DNA of 64,000 nucleotides from Minisyncoccota bacterium (GTDB taxonomy: Bacteria; Patescibacteriota; Minisyncoccia; Phycocordibacterales; SBAW01), in NCBI GenBank assembly GCA_035510635.1, contig DATKGU010000003.1:662-64661 (forward strand), read 5' to 3'. Of the stretch, positions 7,010 through 47,729 are shown piece after piece. Numbering within the stretch: the first letter of the stretch is position 1; the number at the start of each line of letters is the position of its first letter. The translations under genes and the position numbers were made by a program. The notes below the pieces were generated by a model. It was given only the letters and a program-made list of their open reading frames with translations. It had not been told where the DNA came from and did no database searches.

Positions 7010-7296
7010 GATTTTCCGCGCTTAGTTGATAAGCAACTGGCAGCGGCGATTTTCTAGACACAGAAAACCCGCCACGGGTTCCGGCTTGCGCCGGACGTAC
7101 AGGTTTCCCCATACGGCGGATCACGCAACCCCATGACGGGTTTTCTATGCGTGATCCGACCAGAGGCCATGCCACCGTTGCCGATGGTTTAGGCCCTGCC
7201 CTCTCGGGCTATTCAGTTGTAAGCAAATGTTAGCATCGGCGGCGGCTCCTGACCACCCGCTTTGCTAGCGGCGGCGGTAGAGCCTAGAATGAAGGA

Positions 7297-8685: not shown

Positions 8686-10437
8686 ATGAAAACAACAGGA
8701 AAATTGAATTACGGAGGATACTCGCGCAAGTCGAGCGAGGCGGAAGATAAGCAAGCGCTCTCGATCGACTCGCAGATTGATGAACTCAAGAAGCTCGCCG
8801 CAAGCAAGAAAATCGTACTACGAGATGAAGACATAATGCAGGAAGCGCATTCAGCAAAAAGTGCCTTCGCCCGCCCCGTATTCGAATTGCTTATCAAGCA
8901 CATCGAGCAACGCAAGGTGCAAGGCTTACTTGTGTGGCATCCAAACCGGCTCTCACGCAACGCCGTCGACGCGGCGCGCCTTATCCAACTGATGGACGAA
9001 GGGAAACTCGTCGAGATAGTTACGCCGAGCCAGACGTTCCATGACACGCCGCAAGACAAGTTCTTCTTCACGCTCATGACCAGCCAAGCAAAAATGGAGA
9101 ACGATGCGAAAGGCATCGATGTAAAGCGCGGACTCCGAAAAAAGAACGAGATGGGGTACCCAGCCGGCGTCGCCAAACTGGGGTACGTCAATGACTACGG
9201 CGAAAAGGGATATCGGAAGCTCGAGGCGGACCCTGAGCGCTTCGAACTCGTAAAACAGCTGCTACTCATGTTTCTTTCGGGAAAGCACTCTGCACGAGCA
9301 CTCCTGAAGCACTCAACCAATGTCATGCGACTGCATACGATCCAGCGCAAAAAAGAAGGCGGCCGACCTATCCAACTCTCTCGTATTTATACGATGCTGC
9401 AAGACCCATTCTATGCAGGCTTCTTCTGGGCCAAAGACGAAAACAGAGAAACCAAGCGATATGAGGTCAACGAGGCTGTGCCGCGAATGATTACGGAAGC
9501 CCAGTACTGGGAGATACAGACCATGCTCGGCCGGAACGGTATCCCGCGCCCGACCCTTAACAAGGATTCGTTTCCGTACGCTGGTAGGACGCGATGCGGA
9601 AACTGTAACGGTACGGTGATTGCGGAACACAAGCACCAATTGATCTGCCCAAACTGCCGGAATAAATTCGCATACAAAAACAAAGAGGTGTGTCCGCGTT
9701 GCGACACCCGAATAGATCGCATGGAAAACGCGACATACCTCCACTACATCTACTACCACTGCAATAAAGGCAAAAACCCGACCTGCGAGGAGCCGAGCAT
9801 CCAGCAGTCGGGTATAGACGAATCCATGGCGAAGCGCATCGAACAGGAGCTCGAAACGTCGAGGGCCCTTAGTGAATGGTGCATCCAGCACCTTGAGATT
9901 ATCGCGGGCGAAGAGCGCAAAAATGAGTACGAGCGCAAAGAAGGCCTAAAGCGCGAGCTGGCGCAAAAAGAAAAAGAGAGCGAAGAACTCATTCGCATGC
10001 GCATGAAAGGCCTTATCGAGGACGATGACGAGTTCCTGCGATACAAGGAAGGGCTGGAGAGCGACAAGCGCCGAATAAAGCAAGTTCTAGACGACATGGG
10101 CGGAACGGACACCGCGAGTCTCGAGGAGGCAAAGAAAGCCTTCGCCGTGATCGTCGGATTGAGCGCAGTGTTCAAAAGCGGCACATTCGAGGAAAAACAG
10201 GAGGCTTTATCGGTGCTCGGTTCGAACCTAACTTTAAAGGAGAAAAACCTCAACGTTATCAACAAGAAAGTGTTCTTATTGATTTCAAAAGGCCTACTTG
10301 AGGCGAGAGCCAAAAACCCTACGTTCGAACCTAGAAATTATGAGGCAGATAAAGACGAAACGGAGGCATTCGCCTCCGTTCGTCCAACCTTGCTCCGCGA
10401 CCAGGACTCGAACCTGGAACCAACTCCTTACACGTAA
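8686..10437 (+). CDS. Large serine recombinase/integrase (resolvase-type catalytic domain, recombinase domain and zinc-ribbon). The annotated 3' end reads through into the tRNA-Asn 3' exon.
   Basis: N-terminus GYSRKSSEAEDKQALSID...VWHPNRLSRN (catalytic Ser, resolvase fold); Cys clusters CGNCNG...CPNC and CPRC...C (zinc ribbon); coiled-coil C-terminus; 583 aa. Confidence 0.85.
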   Translation: MKTTGKLNYGGYSRKSSEAEDKQALSIDSQIDELKKLAASKKIVLRDEDIMQEAHSAKSAFARPVFELLIKHIEQRKVQGLLVWHPNRLSRNAVDAARLIQLMDEGKLVEIVTPSQTFHDTPQDKFFFTLMTSQAKMENDAKGIDVKRGLRKKNEMGYPAGVAKLGYVNDYGEKGYRKLEADPERFELVKQLLLMFLSGKHSARALLKHSTNVMRLHTIQRKKEGGRPIQLSRIYTMLQDPFYAGFFWAKDENRETKRYEVNEAVPRMITEAQYWEIQTMLGRNGIPRPTLNKDSFPYAGRTRCGNCNGTVIAEHKHQLICPNCRNKFAYKNKEVCPRCDTRIDRMENATYLHYIYYHCNKGKNPTCEEPSIQQSGIDESMAKRIEQELETSRALSEWCIQHLEIIAGEERKNEYERKEGLKRELAQKEKESEELIRMRMKGLIEDDDEFLRYKEGLESDKRRIKQVLDDMGGTDTASLEEAKKAFAVIVGLSAVFKSGTFEEKQEALSVLGSNLTLKEKNLNVINKKVFLLISKGLLEARAKNPTFEPRNYEADKDETEAFASVRPTLLRDQDSNLEPTPYT

Positions 10438-10699
10438 TCCCACATTGCTGGGGGCGTGGACTATATCATCATCCCAGTTACTAAACTGTCGGATGCGAGG
10501 CGCTTCGTGCCGCAAAACAACTTTGCGGAACTACTCCCTTGCGGGATAGTCTCTACACCTTTTCCAAAACTTTTGGAACTTGGCTCGGGATTGCCCTTAT
10601 TGCTAAGGGTTTCCCCGAATTCACCTCGTTTTGCAATCCAGATTACGCTGGAAAGCTGCCTTTTGACAGGGAGCTGCTCTACCATTGAGCTATCGCGGA
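10393..10699 (-). tRNA. tRNA-Asn(GUU) interrupted by a group I intron in the anticodon loop (exons 10666-10699 and 10393-10430; mature length 72 nt, CCA not encoded).
   Basis: 5' exon UCCGCGA-UA-GCUC-AAUGGUA-GAGC-A-GCUCC-CUGU. 3' exon UAA-GGAGU-UGGUU-CCAGG-UUCGAGU-CCUGG-UCGCGGA-G. Acceptor stems complementary, U1-A72, G73, loop CUGUUAA identical to E. coli tRNA-Asn. An alternative splice reading would give Thr(UGU). Confidence 0.65.
10431..10665 (-). ncRNA. Group I self-splicing intron, IC3-like (Azoarcus/tRNA-type), 235 nt, no ORF.
   Basis: P1: exon CUGU^C pairs with IGS GGCAG (U.G at the splice site). R-like GGUGUAGAGACUA and S-like GAUAUAGUCC elements form P7 (GACUA/UAGUC). Strong similarity to the Azoarcus intron core (AAUUCGGGGAAACC...CCGAGCCAAGUUCC...AAGGUGUAGAGACUA). 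Terminal G before the 3' exon. Confidence 0.7.
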
Positions 10700-16942: not shown

Positions 16943-16981
16943 TTTGTTTAAGTAGGCTGGCTCTTGTATCATGGGCTGGCA

Positions 16982-17995
16982 ATGGCTTTTTTTACTCCAA
17001 AACTCGGCATCGACCTCGGCACTGCCAACACGCTGGTGTTTGTACCCGGCAAAGGGGTTATCCTCAACGAGCCTTCGGTGGTGGCAATCTCGGAGATAGA
17101 CAAGCGCATTTTGGCGGTTGGTTTTGCCGCTAAAGAGATGATCGGCCGCACACCGGGCGAGATTGTGGCGTACCGGCCGCTCCGCGACGGCGTGATTGCC
17201 GACTACCGCGTGACGCAAGCAATGCTGCGCTATTTTATACAAAAGGCGCTCGGGCGTTTCCAACTTTTTAAACCAGAGGTGATGATTAGCGTGCCAACCG
17301 GCGTCACTTCTACCGAACGGCGCGCGGTTGTGGAGGCCGCGATACGCGCGGGCGCTAAAAGCGCATATGTGGTTAAGGAGTCGGTGCTCGCGGCCATTGG
17401 CGCGGGCATCCCGATACAAGAGGCGCGTGGCAACATGGTGGTAGACCTCGGCGGCGGCACGTGCGATGTGGCGGTGATTAGCCTCGGCGGTATTGTCGCT
17501 TCGACAAGTGTTAAATGCGCGGGCGACAAGCTCGACCACGCGATTGCCGATTATATTAAAAAAACGTACAACCTCGGCATCGGCGAGAAGACCGCCGAGG
17601 ATGTAAAAATCGCCATCGGCTCGGCGGTGCCGATGGAGGAGGAGCTCGTGGTGATGGTACGCGGCCGCGATTTTATATCGGGCCTGCCGCGCACGGTGGA
17701 GATAAAAACCAACGACATCGTCAAAGCAATCGGCAAAGAACTCCGCGAAATTATCAAAGCAATACGCGATGTGTTGCAAGAGACGCCGCCGGAGCTCGCA
17801 TCCGACATTATCGATAGAGGCATCATCATGACCGGAGGCACTTCGATGTTGCGCAATTTTCCCGAGCTGGTACTGCGCCGCACGGGCGTTAAAGCCGAGG
17901 TTGCCAACGACCCGCTCTATTGCGTGGCGCGCGGCACAGGCATTGCACTCAACCATCTCGACACCTACAAAAAAGCAATCATCACAAAGAGGTAA
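16982..17995 (+). CDS. mreB: Rod shape-determining protein MreB (paralog 1, standalone).
   Basis: Actin-fold motifs GIDLGTANT, DLGGGTCDVAV, IMTGGTS. Confidence 0.9.
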   Translation: MAFFTPKLGIDLGTANTLVFVPGKGVILNEPSVVAISEIDKRILAVGFAAKEMIGRTPGEIVAYRPLRDGVIADYRVTQAMLRYFIQKALGRFQLFKPEVMISVPTGVTSTERRAVVEAAIRAGAKSAYVVKESVLAAIGAGIPIQEARGNMVVDLGGGTCDVAVISLGGIVASTSVKCAGDKLDHAIADYIKKTYNLGIGEKTAEDVKIAIGSAVPMEEELVVMVRGRDFISGLPRTVEIKTNDIVKAIGKELREIIKAIRDVLQETPPELASDIIDRGIIMTGGTSMLRNFPELVLRRTGVKAEVANDPLYCVARGTGIALNHLDTYKKAIITKR

Positions 17996-19947: not shown

Positions 19948-21096
19948 ATGACCTTCGTCTACTTTATTCTTATTTTGGTGGTGCTCGTTATTATCCACGA
20001 GTTTGGGCATTTTATTGTTGCCAAATTATCCGGCATATGCGTCGATGAGTTTGGCATATTTTTCCCGCCGCGCATTGCGGCAATAAAAAGAGGGGAGACC
20101 GAGTACTCTATCAACTGGCTGCCATTTGGCGGATTTGTAAAAATCTTTGGAGAGAATGGAGAAACAAACGAACGCAGCCCCGACGCTTTGGTCGGGGTTC
20201 CGACCTCCGAGGCGGAGCGTCGGAATTTCGTCAACAAGCCGCGCTACGTGCAGGCGGCCGTAATTGTTGCAGGCATCGTGTTTAATCTCATCTTTGCGTG
20301 GCTCGTGCTCTCGGCCGGCTACATGGCAGGCATCCCCACCTCGCCCGGCACCAACACTGTGGGCACGGTTACCAACGTGCAGGTGATGGTGACCGATGTG
20401 TTGCCCAGCTCTCCGGCCGAAAAATCTGGCCTCCTCGCCAGCGACCAAATAGAGGATATACAAACTGCCACGGCTGCGCTCGATGTGCGCTCGCTTGCAC
20501 AAACGCAAAACTCCGGCGCAGCTGATGCCGTGACCAATTTTATTTTGGCGCACCAAGACGAGAGCGTAGTCATCACGGTGTTGCGCGATGGACAGCAAAA
20601 AACATTTTTGGCAAAAGCCGCAGAGGGGATTGTTGCCGGGCACAAAGCCATAGGCGTTGAGCTTTCCGATGTTGGCACACTGAAGCTTGGCCTCCCGCAG
20701 GCACTCGTCCAAGGTGCAGTACTCGGCTACGACATCACCGTGAGCACTGCGCAGGGTCTCGCTACATTTTTTAAACAACTCATAACCCTCACCGCCAATT
20801 TTAACGACGTGTCGGGGCCAATAGGCATCACCGTGTTTGGCGCGGCAACGCTCAAGCAAGGCTGGGTAGCGGCAGCACTTTTAACCGCGCTTATCTCAAT
20901 TAATCTCGCCATCATAAATATCATCCCAATCCCCGGACTCGATGGCGGCCGCTTGCTTATCATTGGTATAGAAGCAGTAATCCGCCGCCCGGTAAACCCA
21001 AGTATTGTGATGAAAGCCACGATGGTGGGCTTTGCACTCCTCATCCTGCTTATGGTAGTCGTGTCCTATCACGACATAGTCCGCCTTGTGGGGTAA
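19948..21096 (+). CDS. rseP: RIP zinc metalloprotease RseP (site-2 protease).
   Basis: HEFGHFIVAK (HExxH) in the first TM helix; PDZ-like middle; multiple TM helices. Confidence 0.85.
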   Translation: MTFVYFILILVVLVIIHEFGHFIVAKLSGICVDEFGIFFPPRIAAIKRGETEYSINWLPFGGFVKIFGENGETNERSPDALVGVPTSEAERRNFVNKPRYVQAAVIVAGIVFNLIFAWLVLSAGYMAGIPTSPGTNTVGTVTNVQVMVTDVLPSSPAEKSGLLASDQIEDIQTATAALDVRSLAQTQNSGAADAVTNFILAHQDESVVITVLRDGQQKTFLAKAAEGIVAGHKAIGVELSDVGTLKLGLPQALVQGAVLGYDITVSTAQGLATFFKQLITLTANFNDVSGPIGITVFGAATLKQGWVAAALLTALISINLAIINIIPIPGLDGGRLLIIGIEAVIRRPVNPSIVMKATMVGFALLILLMVVVSYHDIVRLVG

Positions 21097-21184
21097 ATAA
21101 AAAAGCCCCGCACACTGTTCTGGGCAACAGATGTGCGGGACCAAGTTTGAAACAAAGAACTTTTCTTATTTTGTGCCGACGCGC

Positions 21185-22378
21185 TTACGCGGCGGCTTCG
21201 TCGAGCGGTTCCTCGCCTTCCTCGCGGAAGTAATAGAGGACGCTGCAGTCAGCCAGCGGGTTCCACTGCTTTCCGCTGTTATCCATATCCACGAGTTTGT
21301 GGATGAGAAGAATATCGCCCGGCCGCAGGAGCTTGAGCCCTTGTCGGTCGATGCGACCGGTGTCGGTCGTCTGATGGCGTAGTTGCACCTTCGTGATCTC
21401 GCGACCTTTGAAGGTGATGGGTTGCCGCAGTGTGGCGTAGCCCATCGCCGAACCGCCGGTGCCGTAGACAAACCAGTCCAACACGGCCTGTTTGTCCGAA
21501 GTTAAGGCGACCTTTGGTTCCGGCCTGATCCAGAAGTCTTCGTCGTCGTCCCATTTCTCGAGCGTGGCGCTGCGCACCAGCTCGCGGAACTTGGGCAAGA
21601 GCAGCATCTGCAGCCACTGCTCGATCGAAGGATGGCCGACATCCGGCACGAAGACGAATCCGTTGAGGATCTTTCGAACCTCGTCGCTACCGAACGCGGC
21701 AGCGACGCGTTTGTCTTCGCTTTTCAGCGTGTAGGGCGTCTTCGCAGTACGCTTGTACACGTACCCGCGCCAGCCGATGTCCTGCACCAGACGGAACTCG
21801 CCGTCCAGGTATATGATGAGAACGCGGTCGAGCGTGACCCTCCCGGTCTTGCTCACCGCTATGATGTCGGCGCGATTCGATCCGCACCGACTTTGCATTT
21901 GGGTGTCGACCCAGAGGACAACCCGCGGGATATTTTGTTCCGCCATCTCCTTGTTGTCGGAGACGATGCGGGAACGCACTTCGCATGGCGGCTCGCTGTG
22001 GACCACCAGGTCCCCATACGGGGCGACGTTCGCGGCAAGACGATACCTGTCGCCGTTTTCGCGTTGGGCGATAATTACCCGGTCATTGTCCTTGTGATGG
22101 GCGATTTCCAGCGCAAAGTTGGTGACCAACCTGTCCCGCAGATTGTTGCGGGCAAACGACGCCTTGTCGGTGTTCTCGATCTTGGCGACCTCTTTCCACC
22201 CATTCGCGAAATCCGGCAAACTGATGACGCCGGTCCGCTGGTCGATGGTAGGAACCACCTCCGTCTGCATGTTTTTGCCCGTGAAGGCCGTCACGAAGGC
22301 GATGACACCCGCGTGACTGAAATTGCGAGAGTTGGCTAGTGTTCTCGACATGACAAAACTCCGTGTCTTGCGGGGCAT
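21185..22378 (-). CDS. Hypothetical protein (397 aa), possible nucleic-acid-binding or nuclease-related; last gene of a 3-gene operon.
   Basis: No confident motif; C-terminal beta-rich segment ...ITFKGREITKVQLRHQ...LRPGDILLIHKL. Confidence 0.5.
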   Translation of the reverse strand: MPRKTRSFVMSRTLANSRNFSHAGVIAFVTAFTGKNMQTEVVPTIDQRTGVISLPDFANGWKEVAKIENTDKASFARNNLRDRLVTNFALEIAHHKDNDRVIIAQRENGDRYRLAANVAPYGDLVVHSEPPCEVRSRIVSDNKEMAEQNIPRVVLWVDTQMQSRCGSNRADIIAVSKTGRVTLDRVLIIYLDGEFRLVQDIGWRGYVYKRTAKTPYTLKSEDKRVAAAFGSDEVRKILNGFVFVPDVGHPSIEQWLQMLLLPKFRELVRSATLEKWDDDEDFWIRPEPKVALTSDKQAVLDWFVYGTGGSAMGYATLRQPITFKGREITKVQLRHQTTDTGRIDRQGLKLLRPGDILLIHKLVDMDNSGKQWNPLADCSVLYYFREEGEEPLDEAAA

Positions 22379-22467
22379 GAGCGCCCCACGATGTATTCTT
22401 TTTTCAGTGAACGATTCGTGTTGCCGAGTTCGACTCCCAGAGTCAAACCCAACATGCGAACCATTAC

Positions 22468-23496
22468 TTATTTGATGTTCAGCGCTTCGAGTCCTGCTCT
22501 GACTATTTTTTTAAACTCCTCCCACTCGATGCTCGAGGGCGTCACTTTATCGCTGTGCGAGCCGCCGTTAAGCAGCGAGTTGGTTGCCGGATCATAATAC
22601 CAGTATTCAACTTCTTTAATGCGGCCGGTTTGGCCAAGATATACTGGGTCATTACCAAGATCTATGCCGGCATTTTCTCCCTCGCGCAAACGGATAAGTG
22701 CTGCAACAATCGAGAGGTCGATTTTATGCTCCTGTTTTGTAAGGACGCATAAGTGATTGGTCTTTTCAGATTTTTGTATAACCACATCAGCATGCGGGCC
22801 GCTCATCGAGCGCAGGTACGTGGGCATAGCCGGCTTATCCGAAACTATGCACGACACGAGCAACTTTTTGTTTCCGTAGGTAACGGTAAACTCTTCATAT
22901 GCGCCTTCGGCGCGCTTGCGCTCAACCTCGGCAGGCAACTCAACATGGTGCTCTTGGGCTGATTGCCAGTGAGCTTCGAGGAGGGGGAGTATTGAGTCGA
23001 CCACATGTTGCGGATTTTTAGGATTTGCTTTGTTGAGCGATGCAATAAGTCCCGAGAGTCCAAACGCACGATCAAGCGGATCGCGTGATACCGTTCCTTT
23101 CCCTTGTTTATCATCACGATTGGTGTATGCAAGCAACTGTTGCAATGAACGATCGTTATACACGCCAAGATATCGTGCAACCAGTTCGGTCGTGGAGTAG
23201 TCGGAGCCATGATGGTCAAGCGGTCCGCCGCCCAAATCAATTGCCAATATATTTTGCTTCAGTAAACTTTCAAAGGTCTCATTGTTCTCCAATTGCGCGC
23301 GTACTTCAACGGTAGCATTTTCAATATCAGGGAATTTTTTTGCCCCAAATTTTTTGAGCAAGAAGATTGCCACGATAGTATCGGGCTGAGGACGGGTTGG
23401 CAACAGCATTTTCCACTGCTTTTCCACGGAAACAATTGTAGCATACATACTATAAAAAGTAAAGACCCCGGGCAGGATAGCTTGACATTGAGCCAA
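22468..23496 (-). CDS. Hypothetical protein with DLGGGPLDHHG motif (DHH-like phosphoesterase-like?). True start possibly M30.
   Basis: Motif AIDLGGGPLDHHGSDY; otherwise unrecognised. Confidence 0.45.
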   Translation of the reverse strand: MAQCQAILPGVFTFYSMYATIVSVEKQWKMLLPTRPQPDTIVAIFLLKKFGAKKFPDIENATVEVRAQLENNETFESLLKQNILAIDLGGGPLDHHGSDYSTTELVARYLGVYNDRSLQQLLAYTNRDDKQGKGTVSRDPLDRAFGLSGLIASLNKANPKNPQHVVDSILPLLEAHWQSAQEHHVELPAEVERKRAEGAYEEFTVTYGNKKLLVSCIVSDKPAMPTYLRSMSGPHADVVIQKSEKTNHLCVLTKQEHKIDLSIVAALIRLREGENAGIDLGNDPVYLGQTGRIKEVEYWYYDPATNSLLNGGSHSDKVTPSSIEWEEFKKIVRAGLEALNIK

Positions 23497-23529
23497 AGTA
23501 TCCTGTCCGGGGTAGTTTTTGTGCCCTTG

Positions 23530-24399
23530 TTAGGCCTTTTTCGCGTACTTCTCGGCGAGTTTGCCGAGCAGAGTCGGCATCACGTTGCCGAATACCTGGA
23601 GCCGAGCAATAAAGCGCTCAGAAAGTTTGCTCTTCTCCATGAGAAGAATTTCGTCCGCCGACCAGTCGTATCGGACGAACTCGCGACCCGACCCCCGTTG
23701 AATGGGGTTGGCGCCGGTCGTGTCGAACAACCGATCCATCTGCACCGGCTTCAATAGGCGTGCTTGAGGCATAAAGTGCAACCCCAGCCAAACCGCCTCG
23801 AACACGTCGTAGTTCGTCCGAGCCTCCAAGCGATCCACGAGTTCGCCCGGCATCCGGGCGAAGAGTTTCTTCATGTGCTCGAGATATACTTGATTTTCCG
23901 GCCCCACCGGGACGGTGAACTCGACGCCATCTGAACCCATTCTCTCTACATTGCCGTCCTTTCTCCGCCAAGAGGCGGGAGTGATGAGTGGGCGCGGAGT
24001 AAATTTGAGAGCCTCCGGTCTGTCTTTCAATGACCGGAATAATGGAATGGCCGGCTTAAGTTCGGCCAATTTCCCTCCGCGCACATATATATTGCGTGCG
24101 CGTGCTGCGCGGAAGAGCGCGAGGGCGGCCTCAGGATCGGGGTGTTCTTCCTTGGATAGTTGTTCGATTTGAGCCTGGAGATGGCACATCTTGGCGAAGG
24201 GGTCAACGACAATTGCCCCCCGCGCCTGTCTCAGTTCCTCCAAAGCTTCGCGCGCCTCTTCGCTGATGAGTGCGGCCTGTTCCAGAGCATGCATTTCTTC
24301 GGGTGAGATTTGCGCACCTTCGATAGCCTTTGCAGCTTGTGACTTTCCTGCTTCTTTGGCTTCGAGTGCTTGCTTTGCGAGTTCACGAAGTGATGACAT
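23530..24399 (-). CDS. Hypothetical protein with N-terminal coiled-coil.
   Basis: Helical EA-rich N-terminus; 33-nt gap to the next gene on the same strand. Confidence 0.5.
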   Translation of the reverse strand: MSSLRELAKQALEAKEAGKSQAAKAIEGAQISPEEMHALEQAALISEEAREALEELRQARGAIVVDPFAKMCHLQAQIEQLSKEEHPDPEAALALFRAARARNIYVRGGKLAELKPAIPLFRSLKDRPEALKFTPRPLITPASWRRKDGNVERMGSDGVEFTVPVGPENQVYLEHMKKLFARMPGELVDRLEARTNYDVFEAVWLGLHFMPQARLLKPVQMDRLFDTTGANPIQRGSGREFVRYDWSADEILLMEKSKLSERFIARLQVFGNVMPTLLGKLAEKYAKKA

Positions 24400-24629
24400 T
24401 GTTTTGTCTCTCTCTTAGTACCCGAGCCATTGTAAGAATGGACTGCGGTCGGTGGGTGGAGCCTCGTCGAGTGACGGGCCGGTACGCTTTTACAAGGAGC
24501 AAGGTTTGGGCGTGTTTGCCCGAACCAAGTCCAAAAAAAGCTTACTATATTTTACAGGAAAGTCAAGTTTCTTCCTGTTATATAAAGCTTTTTTGCCACC
24601 AATCGTTTTTGGCTCTACAATGAGTCCCT

Positions 24630-25907: not shown

Positions 25908-26963
25908 ATGTTTAAAAATTTTCAAAACAGATTTTTGCCGCTTATATCCAACGATGTAGGCATCGACCTTGGCACGGCCAACACGCTGGTATATCTGCGC
26001 GGCAAAGGCATTGTCGTAACCGAGCCGTCGGTGGTGGCGGTCAATCAAAAAACCGGCCAGGTGGTAGCGGTGGGCGCCGAGGCAAAGGCGATGCTCGGCC
26101 GCACGCCAGGGCACTTAGTGGCGGTGCGTCCGCTTATCGACGGCGTTGTGTCCGACTTTGAAGCAACCGAGGAGATGCTCGCCTATCTCATTAACCGCGC
26201 ACAAGGCGTGTCGCGCAAAATGCTGGGCCCTCGTGCGGTCATTGGCGTACCGTCCGGCATTACCAACGTGGAGATACGCGCCGTTAAAGATGCGGCGCAA
26301 AACGCGGGCGCGCGCGAGGTACATATAGTAGAGGAGCCGATGGCCGCGGCGCTCGGCATACGCTTGCCGGTGCGCGAAGCGATGGGCAGCATGATTGTCG
26401 ACATCGGCGGCGGCACGGTTGATATTGCGGTCATCAGTTTGGGAGGTATTGTCCGCTCTAAAAATTTGCGCGTCGCAGGCGACAAGCTCAATCAAGACAT
26501 CATTTCTTATGTACGCTCTGAGTTTAAAATTTTAATAGGGGAGAAGACTGCCGAAAACGTAAAGATGGCGATAGGCACCGCCATCGAGGGCGGCGAGCAC
26601 ATGGAGGCCATCATACGCGGCCGCGACCTCATCACAGGCTTGCCGCGCGAGATTATCATTACCGACTCGGACATTCGCGAGGCAATCTCGCAATCGATAG
26701 ATACGCTGGTTGAGTCGGTGCGCGAGGTGCTTGAGACAACGCCGCCCGAGATTCTCTCCGATATCATGCACTCAGGCATTGTGCTCGTGGGCGGCGGCGC
26801 ATTGCTCAAAGGGCTCGACAGCTTGCTCGCGCAATGGCTCAAAGTGCCCGTATTGGTAGCCGACGACCCGCTCACGGCCGTGGCGCGCGGCACCGGAGTT
26901 ATTTTGGAAAATTTAGAGGCGCATCGCGACGTATTTCTCGAACATGACGACGATATCTCCTAA
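25908..26963 (+). CDS. mreB: Rod shape-determining protein MreB (paralog 2, in the mreBCD-mrdA operon).
   Basis: GIDLGTANT, DIGGGTVDIAV, VLVGGGA motifs; followed by mreC. Confidence 0.9.
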   Translation: MFKNFQNRFLPLISNDVGIDLGTANTLVYLRGKGIVVTEPSVVAVNQKTGQVVAVGAEAKAMLGRTPGHLVAVRPLIDGVVSDFEATEEMLAYLINRAQGVSRKMLGPRAVIGVPSGITNVEIRAVKDAAQNAGAREVHIVEEPMAAALGIRLPVREAMGSMIVDIGGGTVDIAVISLGGIVRSKNLRVAGDKLNQDIISYVRSEFKILIGEKTAENVKMAIGTAIEGGEHMEAIIRGRDLITGLPREIIITDSDIREAISQSIDTLVESVREVLETTPPEILSDIMHSGIVLVGGGALLKGLDSLLAQWLKVPVLVADDPLTAVARGTGVILENLEAHRDVFLEHDDDIS

Positions 26964-46463: not shown

Positions 46464-47729
46464 ATGAACACACCGCGCATGAAGGTTGCCGTTCTTTTTT
46501 TGGTAGTTGCAATAGCGTTTGGAGCAGGAGTGTTTGCGGGCGTCGGTGAGCGTGTGGGTAATGTTGTATTTGCACAACAAACAGCGTCGAGCACGGCACC
46601 ATCGCTCGACATCTCGGTTTTTAATGCGGCATCACAGCCTAAAGATGTGGACATGTCGCAGTTTTGGGAGGCATACAGTTTGCTCCAGCAAAACTTTGTC
46701 GAGACGCATGCTTCGGGCACCATCCCCACCACGCAAGAAAAACTATATGGCGCGATATCGGGCCTCGCCGCAAGCTACGGCGACCCGTACACCGTGTTTT
46801 TCCCGCCGCAACAAGCCTCTATCTTTGAGTCGCAGGTAAGCGGCAGCTTTGCGGGCGTTGGTATGGAGATGAATCAGGATGACAGTGGCAATATTGTCGT
46901 CACCGCGCCACTCAAAGGTTCTCCAGCCGAGAAGGCGGGTATGCAGAGCGGCGATGTCGTTACGAGTATCGACGCCACCTCCACGGCAGGCATGAGCATC
47001 GACGAGGCCGTCGCACTCATCCGCGGGCCGATTGGCACCACGGTTACACTCACCGTCGCGCGCCAAGGCGTCACGGCACCTATCGTGATACCTATCGTGC
47101 GCGACACCATTAATATCCCCGAAATAAATTCTTATCAACGCCCCGACGGCATCTATGTCATCCAGCTTTACACCTTTACCGCCAACTCGGCCGACCTCTT
47201 CCGCGATGCTTTGCGGCAATATATGCAAACCGGCGACACGAGGCTCATCTTTGACTTGCGCGGCAATCCGGGCGGTTACCTTGAGGCGGCAGTGGAGATG
47301 GCAAGCTACTTCCTCCCCGCGGGCGACGTGGTGGTCACGGAGGACTTTAAAGGCACGCAGCCAAATATCATCAACCGCTCGCTCGGCTACAATGTGTTTG
47401 CCGGCAAAAAACTTTCGATGGCAATATTGGTTGACCAAAACTCGGCCTCCGCTTCCGAAATCTTCTCGGGTGCCTTGCAACAGCATGGCGTGGCAAAACT
47501 CGTGGGCACGCGCACCTTTGGCAAAGGCTCGGTGCAACAGGTGATGGACTTGGGCGGCGGCGCGGAGCTTAAAGTCACCATTGCGCGCTGGCTCACGCCA
47601 AACGGCACCTCTATCAGCGACGGCGGTCTGCAGCCCGACATTGCCGCATCCTCAACCACTGCCGATGACCTCAAAGCAGGCAAAGACCCAACCATGGACG
47701 CCGCAGCGTCGTGGCTCATGACGCAGTAG
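46464..47729 (+). CDS. ctpA: Carboxyl-terminal processing protease (S41 family, CtpA/Prc-like) with PDZ domain.
   Basis: Signal/TM N-terminus, PDZ (GDVVTSID), GGYLEAAVEMASYF..., catalytic Ser region NSASASE, RTFGKGSVQ. Confidence 0.85.
   Translation: MNTPRMKVAVLFLVVAIAFGAGVFAGVGERVGNVVFAQQTASSTAPSLDISVFNAASQPKDVDMSQFWEAYSLLQQNFVETHASGTIPTTQEKLYGAISGLAASYGDPYTVFFPPQQASIFESQVSGSFAGVGMEMNQDDSGNIVVTAPLKGSPAEKAGMQSGDVVTSIDATSTAGMSIDEAVALIRGPIGTTVTLTVARQGVTAPIVIPIVRDTINIPEINSYQRPDGIYVIQLYTFTANSADLFRDALRQYMQTGDTRLIFDLRGNPGGYLEAAVEMASYFLPAGDVVVTEDFKGTQPNIINRSLGYNVFAGKKLSMAILVDQNSASASEIFSGALQQHGVAKLVGTRTFGKGSVQQVMDLGGGAELKVTIARWLTPNGTSISDGGLQPDIAASSTTADDLKAGKDPTMDAAASWLMTQ

Follow-up and report, generated by a model that had tools for sequence, protein, structure and literature searches.

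DHH-type phosphoesterases and the protein encoded by gene B

MYG1 is a DHH-family enzyme which acts as a 3′–5′ RNA exonuclease (PMC6582341). The proteins of the MYG1/UPF0160 family (PF03690) are two-domain DHH-type proteins of about 310–340 aa, in which motifs II and III are compactly arranged (I-D-x-G-G ... (F/L)-D-H-H), an RDD region follows these, and the N-terminus carries a His-rich HDGxxHADD sequence. A DHH–DHHA1 architecture is found in the nanoRNases NrnA, NrN and TM1595 and in the pAp phosphatases, which have a DxD form of motif I and a DHHA1 ‘GGGH’ motif, as well as in RecJ, where the DHH–DHHA1 core is combined with an OB fold. The 2H (2′,3′-cyclic) phosphoesterases (LigT/ThpR, PF02834, PF13563) carry two HxT/S motifs. 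In the Patescibacteria, a group with tiny genomes and a presumed reliance on nucleotide salvage, much of the RNA-turnover machinery is unassigned.

The locus described here lies in a Paceibacteria (Patescibacteria) genome, within the 64-kb stretch of DNA that was analysed as a whole (the window). Its central gene, B (22468..23496, minus strand), has a longest ORF of 342 aa, which the sequence-only reading had guessed to be ‘DHH-like’ from a DLGGGPLDHHG motif. The motif is present, and the guess was borne out by the AlphaFold model of the protein (pLDDT 94), in which a fold of the DHH domain is joined to a second domain of the DHHA1 type. Nearly all of the top matches in a Foldseek search of the PDB were proteins of the DHH superfamily (NrN, PPX1, NrnA, RecJ), and further matches included NrnA/Pde2, GdpP, PggH, DhhP, PAP phosphatase, RecJ-Cdc45 and Cdc45; structures of MYG1 were not among the top 50. 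Asp58 of motif II and Asp65-His66-His67 of motif III (numbering from Met30) are invariant in 116/116 sequences of the B family, in which PQPD(10)T, NGG and RDD are also conserved. Motif I reads P-D10-T, with the first Asp at least 90% conserved and a Thr replacing the second, and the DHHA1 motif is N281-G-G283-x, the last position being a His in the window protein that is not conserved across the family. Judged by its model and motifs, B is thus predicted to be a divergent DHH/DHHA1 phosphoesterase with the catalytic DHH triad.

At the level of sequence, neither the window protein nor any of the 116 family members matched the Pfam models DHH (PF01368) and DHHA1 (PF02272) at E ≤ 1, or the MYG1 model PF03690. 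The B-family profile gave 0 matches at E ≤ 10 against PDB sequences, and searches of PDB sequences with single sequences and profiles of B and of its neighbors A and C gave no match. The f16 proteins encoded next to B, by contrast, match PF03690 at E 1.4e-47. An hhalign comparison of the B family with five bona fide MYG1 homologues returned 61.8% probability and E 7.6e-5 over 132 columns with motifs I–III aligned, suggesting a weak link by profile to the MYG1 RNA exonuclease family. True MYG1 genes adjoin B in five loci. B shares with MYG1 the two-domain build, the motif II–III layout, the aligned Asp of motif I and the RDD region; it differs in reading RPQPDT where MYG1 has HDGxxHADD, in lacking a PF03690 match and in being found only in Patescibacteria. 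From the nanoRNases and pAp phosphatases it differs more widely, with 6–12% identity, a high global rmsd, DxT instead of DxD in motif I, NGGx in place of GGGH, no Pfam DHH/DHHA1 match, a much shorter DHH domain and a long connecting helix at residues 133–168.

B was detected in at least 144 GTDB species of many Paceibacteria lineages; the family forms 481 clusters at 90% identity, and its members share 38–78% identity across lineages. No paper describing it was found in the literature. B is a new variant, at the level of a family, of an enzyme class that is already known, and its partners A and C are both novel. The family is a branch of the DHH superfamily outside the coverage of Pfam and NCBIfam, and a conserved ‘hypothetical protein’ gains a name and a testable activity. 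A second ‘DHH’ ORF in the window, at 46746-47651 on the minus strand, was rejected as an artefact that runs antisense to a peptidase-like gene.

The fold matches to NrnA/Pde2, GdpP, PggH, DhhP and PAP phosphatase, together with the stand-alone DHH–DHHA1 architecture, would suit a model in which B is a stand-alone phosphodiesterase of the DhhP/Pde2/NrnA type that degrades c-di-AMP/pApA or pAp, with A and C being unrelated or regulatory. This model is considered unlikely, as it leaves unexplained both the repeated independent fusion or adjacency of B to 2H enzymes and the conserved pairing of B with C (both described below), and the closest relative by sequence is MYG1, not NrnA or GdpP.

Organization of the A–B–C locus

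Gene A (23530..24399), the first of the operon, is a 289-aa ORF with an Ala/Glu-rich helical N-terminus and without a known domain, which the sequence-only reading took for a putative coiled-coil protein. Gene C (21185..22378) is a 397-aa ORF; its product, putatively rich in beta structure, belongs to a small novel family and has a conserved NRxD motif. As the sequence-only reading had it, A, B and C are co-directional minus-strand ORFs, separated by 33 and 89 nt when measured from the longest-ORF starts, none of them belongs to a recognizable family (no match in Pfam, NCBIfam, PADLOC or PHROGs), and the flanking genes are housekeeping genes, RseP (TIGR00054, 196.8 bits; cutoff 147.55) and ProRS (TIGR00409, 401 bits; cutoff 306.7), with proS divergent from A across a 230-nt intergenic region (24400..24629). 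All three are real genes, since collinear homologues of each occur in other genomes. B probably starts at the GTG at 23427 (MEKQWKMLLPTRP; cf. the homologue MERIHTIVLPTRP), or else at the ATG at 23409 or 23448, giving about 313–326 aa, and C probably at the ATG at 22351, giving 388 aa; with these later starts, the true intergenic spacers are therefore about 100–120 nt.

An intrinsic terminator lies 3′ of C (21095..21142, minus strand), where a U-run succeeds a hairpin of 16 bp; the hairpin is the centroid hairpin in RNA folding (z = -3.37), and 0/200 shuffled sequences matched it in folding. No terminator was predicted between A, B and C. The operon promoter is presumably located within 24400..24629, a region in which no Rfam element was found and which has a plus-strand promoter-like site on its proS side (24593-24621). 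A consensus scan also gave a promoter-like element in the A–B spacer (23435..23463, minus strand; TTTACT-17-TACAAT, the -10 being extended by TG), which may serve B as an internal promoter, with a putatively leaderless GTG start.

The same trio was found between proS and rseP in at least five further genomes of Paceibacteria (loci L001–L004, L010 and L019), and the locus keeps its place between core genes in six further genomes. In the close relatives L006, L008, L009 and L011 the place of A and C is taken by f2, a B paralogue that is putatively catalytically dead, so that B and f2 form an enzyme/pseudo-enzyme pair. The trio in relatives at this locus, which the sequence-only reading would have counted against its interpretation, is thus largely what was seen, with these closest relatives as the exceptions. 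The homologues of A in L001–L004, L010 and L019 are collinear, 25–33% identical and positioned upstream of B. A occurs in only seven loci, and a word-index search with it returned A itself as the sole match. Pfam searches with six members of the A family, as well as PDB and other family searches, gave no match; A is a fast-evolving helical protein without detectable relatives. In hhalign comparisons, A and C showed no relationship to each other or to the recurrent neighbor families f2, f8, f11, f14, f16 and f21, and the notion of A as a degenerate f2 was rejected on this ground.

In 23/88 loci, the gene that immediately follows B in the same orientation is C, and the pairing is seen in four contexts (proS–rseP, sigma-factor/f14, S1 and FtsH). 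The beta-rich C-terminal domain that had been read from the sequence of C was seen, although only within a low-confidence part of the model. A comparison of the C-terminus with the cold-shock domain gave 60% probability and P 8.6e-5, for a hypothesis chosen by eye; the model of C is poor in this region, and a Pfam scan of 10 members of the C family gave no match of any kind, leaving the cold-shock domain unsupported there. C may nevertheless, on this weak evidence, end in a cold-shock-like (OB-type) barrel. By sequence, C appears as a small family without detectable relatives, and a metagenome scan with a narrower C alignment matched only the contig of L002 and one 1.4-kb fragment.

A possible OB-type module on the separate polypeptide C, next to a DHH-family core in B, recalls the composition of RecJ. 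In a model derived from this likeness, B and C would be a split RecJ-like DNA exonuclease acting in DNA repair or replication, with B as the DHH/DHHA1 core and C as an OB-like ssDNA-binding subunit. RecJ, RecJ-Cdc45 and Cdc45 are indeed among the fold matches of B, and nth, a DNA-repair gene, lies close by, as does holB; however, that neighborhood is simply conserved core synteny, the OB assignment of C is weak, the sequence link of B is to the MYG1 RNA exonuclease, and the association with 2H enzymes favors RNA, or 2′,3′-cyclic phosphate chemistry, over ssDNA. The split-exonuclease model is thus regarded as highly improbable.

It is also conceivable, although rather unlikely, that the locus is no single functional unit, and that B is a housekeeping enzyme with A and C being unrelated lineage-specific genes that share its direction of transcription. 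The limited distribution of A and C would agree with this, as would the finding of none of the partners in 28/88 B loci, the promoter-like site before B and the sharp difference in GC3 between B and the other two genes. Against it stand the four different contexts in which C follows B immediately and in the same orientation, the fact that A is never found without B and C, and the lack of a predicted terminator between the genes.

Link to 2H phosphoesterases and the proposed role

A 2H phosphoesterase is fused to B or encoded next to it in 30/88 loci, a count that includes eight further loci in which stand-alone 2H genes adjoin it. The Pfam search of the 116 B-family members found LigT_PEase in 22 and 2_5_RNA_ligase2 in 20, and no domains besides the fused 2H. 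The fused 2H domains are of at least three types and occur at the N- or the C-terminus of B in separate B clades, and every inspected 2H extension carries both HxT/S motifs intact. As the association thus recurs with several 2H types and at either terminus, it ties B to the chemistry of RNA ends or small RNAs, with the 2H enzymes as its apparent functional partner in relatives. None of A, B and C is itself a 2H protein (no match to PF02834 or PF13563, and no two HxT/S motifs), and no 2H gene was found among the ORFs of the window. A 191-aa gene of L002 with two HxS/T motifs was considered as a 2H protein and set aside, as profile comparison gave no confirmation.

The explanation which fits the whole best, and which we hold to have about an even chance of being right, is a vertically inherited operon in which B represents a new MYG1-like DHH/DHHA1 family that acts on RNA ends or short RNA together with 2H enzymes, while C and A are accessory. 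In this model, B would be a metal-dependent phosphoesterase with MYG1/UPF0160 as its nearest recognizable relative, most likely hydrolyzing phosphoester bonds in RNA 3′ ends, very short oligoribonucleotides or nucleotides. The 2H 2′,3′-cyclic phosphodiesterase would open cyclic-phosphate ends, following which B would dephosphorylate or trim them in the same pathway, and the cell would use this to turn over RNA, salvage nucleotides or heal RNA ends. C would serve as an accessory subunit without catalytic activity that may bind nucleic acid via a cold-shock-like C-terminal barrel, and A as a helical adaptor or regulator. What the analysis establishes is that the genes are real, their synteny, the DHH fold and motifs of B, its adjacency to C and its fusion or adjacency to 2H genes; the substrate of B, its division of labor with the 2H enzyme, the parts played by A and C, and a physical complex are inferences.

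A more specific form of this explanation, which is put forward tentatively and is less likely than not to be right, holds that A–B–C, with the 2H enzymes fused or adjacent in relatives, is an unrecognized Paceibacteria-specific complex for RNA-end repair or small-RNA turnover, built from the new MYG1-like DHH family together with A and C, for which no relatives were detected. The active B would pair with either A and C or the dead f2, and these would be alternative subunits for specificity or regulation. If true, the A–B–C complex might replace canonical nanoRNase function in the reduced genomes of Paceibacteria. The recurrent 2H fusions provide a biochemical hypothesis, i.e. the processing of 2′,3′-cyclic-phosphate RNA ends, and A and C, as well as the B/f2 pair, are targets for structural work.

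Inheritance of the locus and the question of defense

The trio had been read initially as a small defense or nucleic-acid-processing module acquired horizontally. The nucleic-acid-processing part of that reading agrees with the fold of B, its DHH triad and its 2H fusions and adjacencies. The defense part found no support, as the three proteins had 0 PADLOC matches at E ≤ 1, and neither did horizontal acquisition, given that relatives carry the trio between proS and rseP as well and that B is positioned beside core genes across Paceibacteria (FtsH, S1, MetRS, ProRS, RseP). The locus has no mobile-element hallmark. GC3 is unusual in A and C, sharply unlike that of B; the orthologues share the same pattern, for which reason it is not a signature of recent transfer, and recent horizontal transfer was rejected. 

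Under an anti-phage defense or counter-defense model, the locus would break down the nucleic acid of phages or signals made of cyclic oligonucleotides, and A and C would be its sensor or effector partners. A and C do evolve fast, being 25–53% identical where ProRS is 55–85% identical, the partner content differs among close relatives (A and C versus f2), and phage DHH and 2H enzymes have been proposed to degrade immune signaling nucleotides (PMC7824862). Besides the missing PADLOC match, the shared GC3 pattern and the absence of mobile-element hallmarks, this model has to contend with the stable position of the locus among core genes over deep divergence, with the high conservation of B, and with a search of 2.9 million IMG/VR viral contigs in which B and C had no relatives. 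It is consequently judged very unlikely. The comparisons instead indicate vertical inheritance of A–B–C as a lineage-specific Paceibacteria operon, lending no support to an anti-phage system, and the locus drops off the list of candidate defense systems.

Counting against the favored explanation, fast evolution and an odd GC3, as seen in A and C, can also occur in conflict systems.

Gene B and the DHH superfamily

The three minus-strand ORFs A (23530-24399; 289 aa), B (22468-23496; 342 aa) and C (21185-22378; 397 aa), separated by gaps of 33 and 89 nt, are present exactly as the sequence-only reading had described them, with comparison to homologues pointing to later starts for B (GTG 23427, or ATG 23409 or 23448) and for C (ATG 22351). 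None of the three gave a match in Pfam, NCBIfam, PADLOC or PHROGs.

The AlphaFold2 model of B is confident and shows two domains (pLDDT 94.1, pTM 0.86). In a 116-sequence alignment the N-terminal LPTRPQPDT is nearly invariant, and D58, D65-H66-H67 (the DHH triad, numbered from Met30), R98-D99-D100, G103, G105, S108, D113 and N281 are invariant. Family f16, a recurrent neighbour of B, belongs to MYG1/UPF0160 proper (PF03690, E 1.4e-47), and profile-profile comparison aligns it with B over motifs I-III at a modest 61.8% probability (E 7.6e-5), both proteins having the distinctive close motif spacing IDxGG...(F/L)DHH. MYG1 is a DHH-family 3'-5' RNA exonuclease (PMC6582341). Fold, motifs and the MYG1 profile alignment together place B in the DHH superfamily, at the level of fold and motif, with MYG1 as its probable nearest relative there; B is very probably a DHH phosphoesterase, on fold and HH scores that are modest, and the earlier "DHH-like" guess is borne out by the fold and the invariant triad. 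The enzyme class of B is already known; what is new is the family, which belongs to no curated family in Pfam, NCBIfam and PDB sequence searches and for which a literature search found no describing paper, together with its two partners and the alternation of active and dead paralogues.

The locus and its inheritance

The flanking genes encode RseP (TIGR00054) and ProRS (TIGR00409), both above cutoff. The trio and its flanks lie within a run of core genes: mreB, holB-like, nth-like and frr to one side, mreB, mreC and PBP2 to the other. The two MreB paralogues (16964-17995 and 25908-26963, both on the plus strand) keep this arrangement in related loci. A strong hairpin with a U-run lies 3' of C. 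The coding strand showed no terminator-like site in the A-B or B-C spacer, and a promoter-like site in the A-B spacer has an extended -10.

At E <= 1e-3 the homologues of B form 481 clusters, Patescibacteria in every case, and by pattern scan B is present in at least 144 GTDB species, whose labels span many different Paceibacteria candidate lineages. In a MAG named 'Candidatus Paceibacterota bacterium', the hypothetical proteins VMR46_00635 and VMR46_00630 are identical to B and C, respectively. C has five close homologues, and searching all 1.84 billion representatives exhaustively with a profile yielded only 22. A word-index search with A matched only A itself, and related loci have, at the A position, a collinear homologue with 25-33% identity.

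The arrangement proS < A > B > C < rseP recurs in six further genomes (loci L001-L004, L010 and L019) whose ProRS is 55-85% identical to that of the window, and the trio is therefore inherited vertically rather than recently acquired. The horizontal acquisition proposed earlier is not supported, given these six genomes and the absence of B and C relatives from 2.9 million viral contigs. The comparison of relatives suggested at the same time went largely against it, with four exceptions: the loci with the closest relatives of B (L006, L008, L009, L011) keep B between proS and rseP, with the B paralogue f2 in the slot of A and without C. More distant B genes adjoin FtsH, ribosomal protein S1, MetRS or an MBL hydrolase. 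The GC3 of A (0.62), B (0.50) and C (0.77), against 0.60 +/- 0.06 for 26 other genes of the window, follows a pattern of high values in A and C and ordinary ones in B that recurs in L001-L004, and is thus intrinsic to the genes and no sign of transfer. Across the window and these four loci the ranges are 0.62-0.80 for A, 0.77-0.84 for C, 0.50-0.62 for B and 0.49-0.74 for most flanking core genes.

At their C-termini (window 21185-21215; L001-L004), the C proteins of the proS-rseP clade have a conserved acidic stretch and then a final Ala-rich tail (...EEGEEP...AAA). The C protein of L004 (9703-10863) is only 31% identical to that of the window, though L004 is the nearest locus (ProRS 85%, B 78%). 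In genomes further removed (ProRS 55-71%), C reaches 48-53% identity. This incongruence with ProRS and B suggests that C has evolved faster, or has been replaced, in the lineage carrying a fusion of B to a 2H (2',3'-cyclic) phosphoesterase.

Partner genes and a possible role in RNA metabolism

Partners were surveyed by local profile iteration over 88 B-centred loci with simple ORF-based gene calls. In 23 loci the next gene downstream of B, on the same strand, is a C-family gene in a long (~385-430 aa) or short (~290-330 aa) form. These loci represent several different genomic contexts, and this repeated adjacency argues against the alternative that A, B and C are unrelated genes that merely share a location. 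A occurs in seven loci, each time with C. The family f2 (17 loci), found upstream of B, is a full-length B paralogue (hhalign 99.4%, E 3.8e-21). It no longer has the DHH triad and, judged from its sequence, is likely a pseudo-enzyme; f2 and C occur together in none of the 40 loci having either. Partner type tracks the B clades, except in the proS-rseP clade, where A plus C and f2 alternate among close relatives. Examples of f2 just upstream of B are L008, L009, L011, L016, L026, L027, L056 and L073. L083, L085 and L087 carry a second B-like gene (~324-361 aa) 0.6-1.2 kb downstream of B, a paralogue distinct from f2. In L007 the public gene call is a 422-aa minus-strand ORF (9017-10285), but the true gene is more probably a C-family ORF on the plus strand (9026-10210), which matches the C profile at E 8e-127.

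Among the 116 family members, Pfam LigT_PEase is found in 22 and 2_5_RNA_ligase2 in 20, and an extra domain is fused to B in 22 of the 88 loci (13 at the N-terminus, 9 at the C-terminus). Every extension inspected has two HxT/S motifs, and the extensions are of three sequence types in separate B clades. Stand-alone genes of the same 2H types stand beside B or C in eight further loci, one of them L019, whose A-B-C-2H cluster lies between proS and rseP. The A-B-C loci L004 and L010 carry B::2H fusions. No 2H gene was found in the window. That different 2H families have fused to B independently, and at either end, strongly indicates a shared pathway for B and a 2',3'-cyclic phosphodiesterase.

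In the mechanism that we propose, catalysis would fall to B as a two-metal DHH phosphoesterase. Where there is a 2H partner, it would open 2',3'-cyclic phosphates left by metal-independent RNases, following which B would take off the phosphate so formed or shorten the end or a short oligonucleotide. C may bring the RNA via a putative OB-like barrel, which is likened to the OB domain of RecJ and in the operon would lie on a separate chain, while A, or elsewhere the dead paralogue f2, may serve as scaffold or regulator; the overall role would be housekeeping, as RNA turnover, nucleotide salvage or end healing. We give this mechanism, taken whole, an even chance of being correct. The link to 2H enzymes and the conserved setting among core genes argue against two alternatives, a c-di-AMP/pAp phosphodiesterase and a split RecJ-like DNA exonuclease. 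The same evidence stands against a defence or signal-degrading module, which we consider quite improbable; the defence role first suggested for the trio also has no PADLOC match.

Other elements in the window

A LOOT RNA (RF03000) lies at 7080-7195 on the minus strand (84.5 bits; gathering score 46.4), and the adjoining ORFs have sub-threshold Pfam matches or none. A tRNA gene at 10393-10699 (minus strand), missed by ARAGORN, is split in its anticodon loop by a group I intron (RF00028, 71.7 bits; 10438-10679, minus strand); its 7-bp acceptor stem and its D and T arms are intact, and the anticodon would be UGU (Thr) or GUU (Asn), according to where precisely splicing occurs. A large serine recombinase of 583 aa (8686-10437, plus strand; Resolvase, Recombinase and zinc ribbon) overlaps the 3' exon of this tRNA with its last codons on the opposite strand, which suggests an integrated element with the tRNA as its attachment site.
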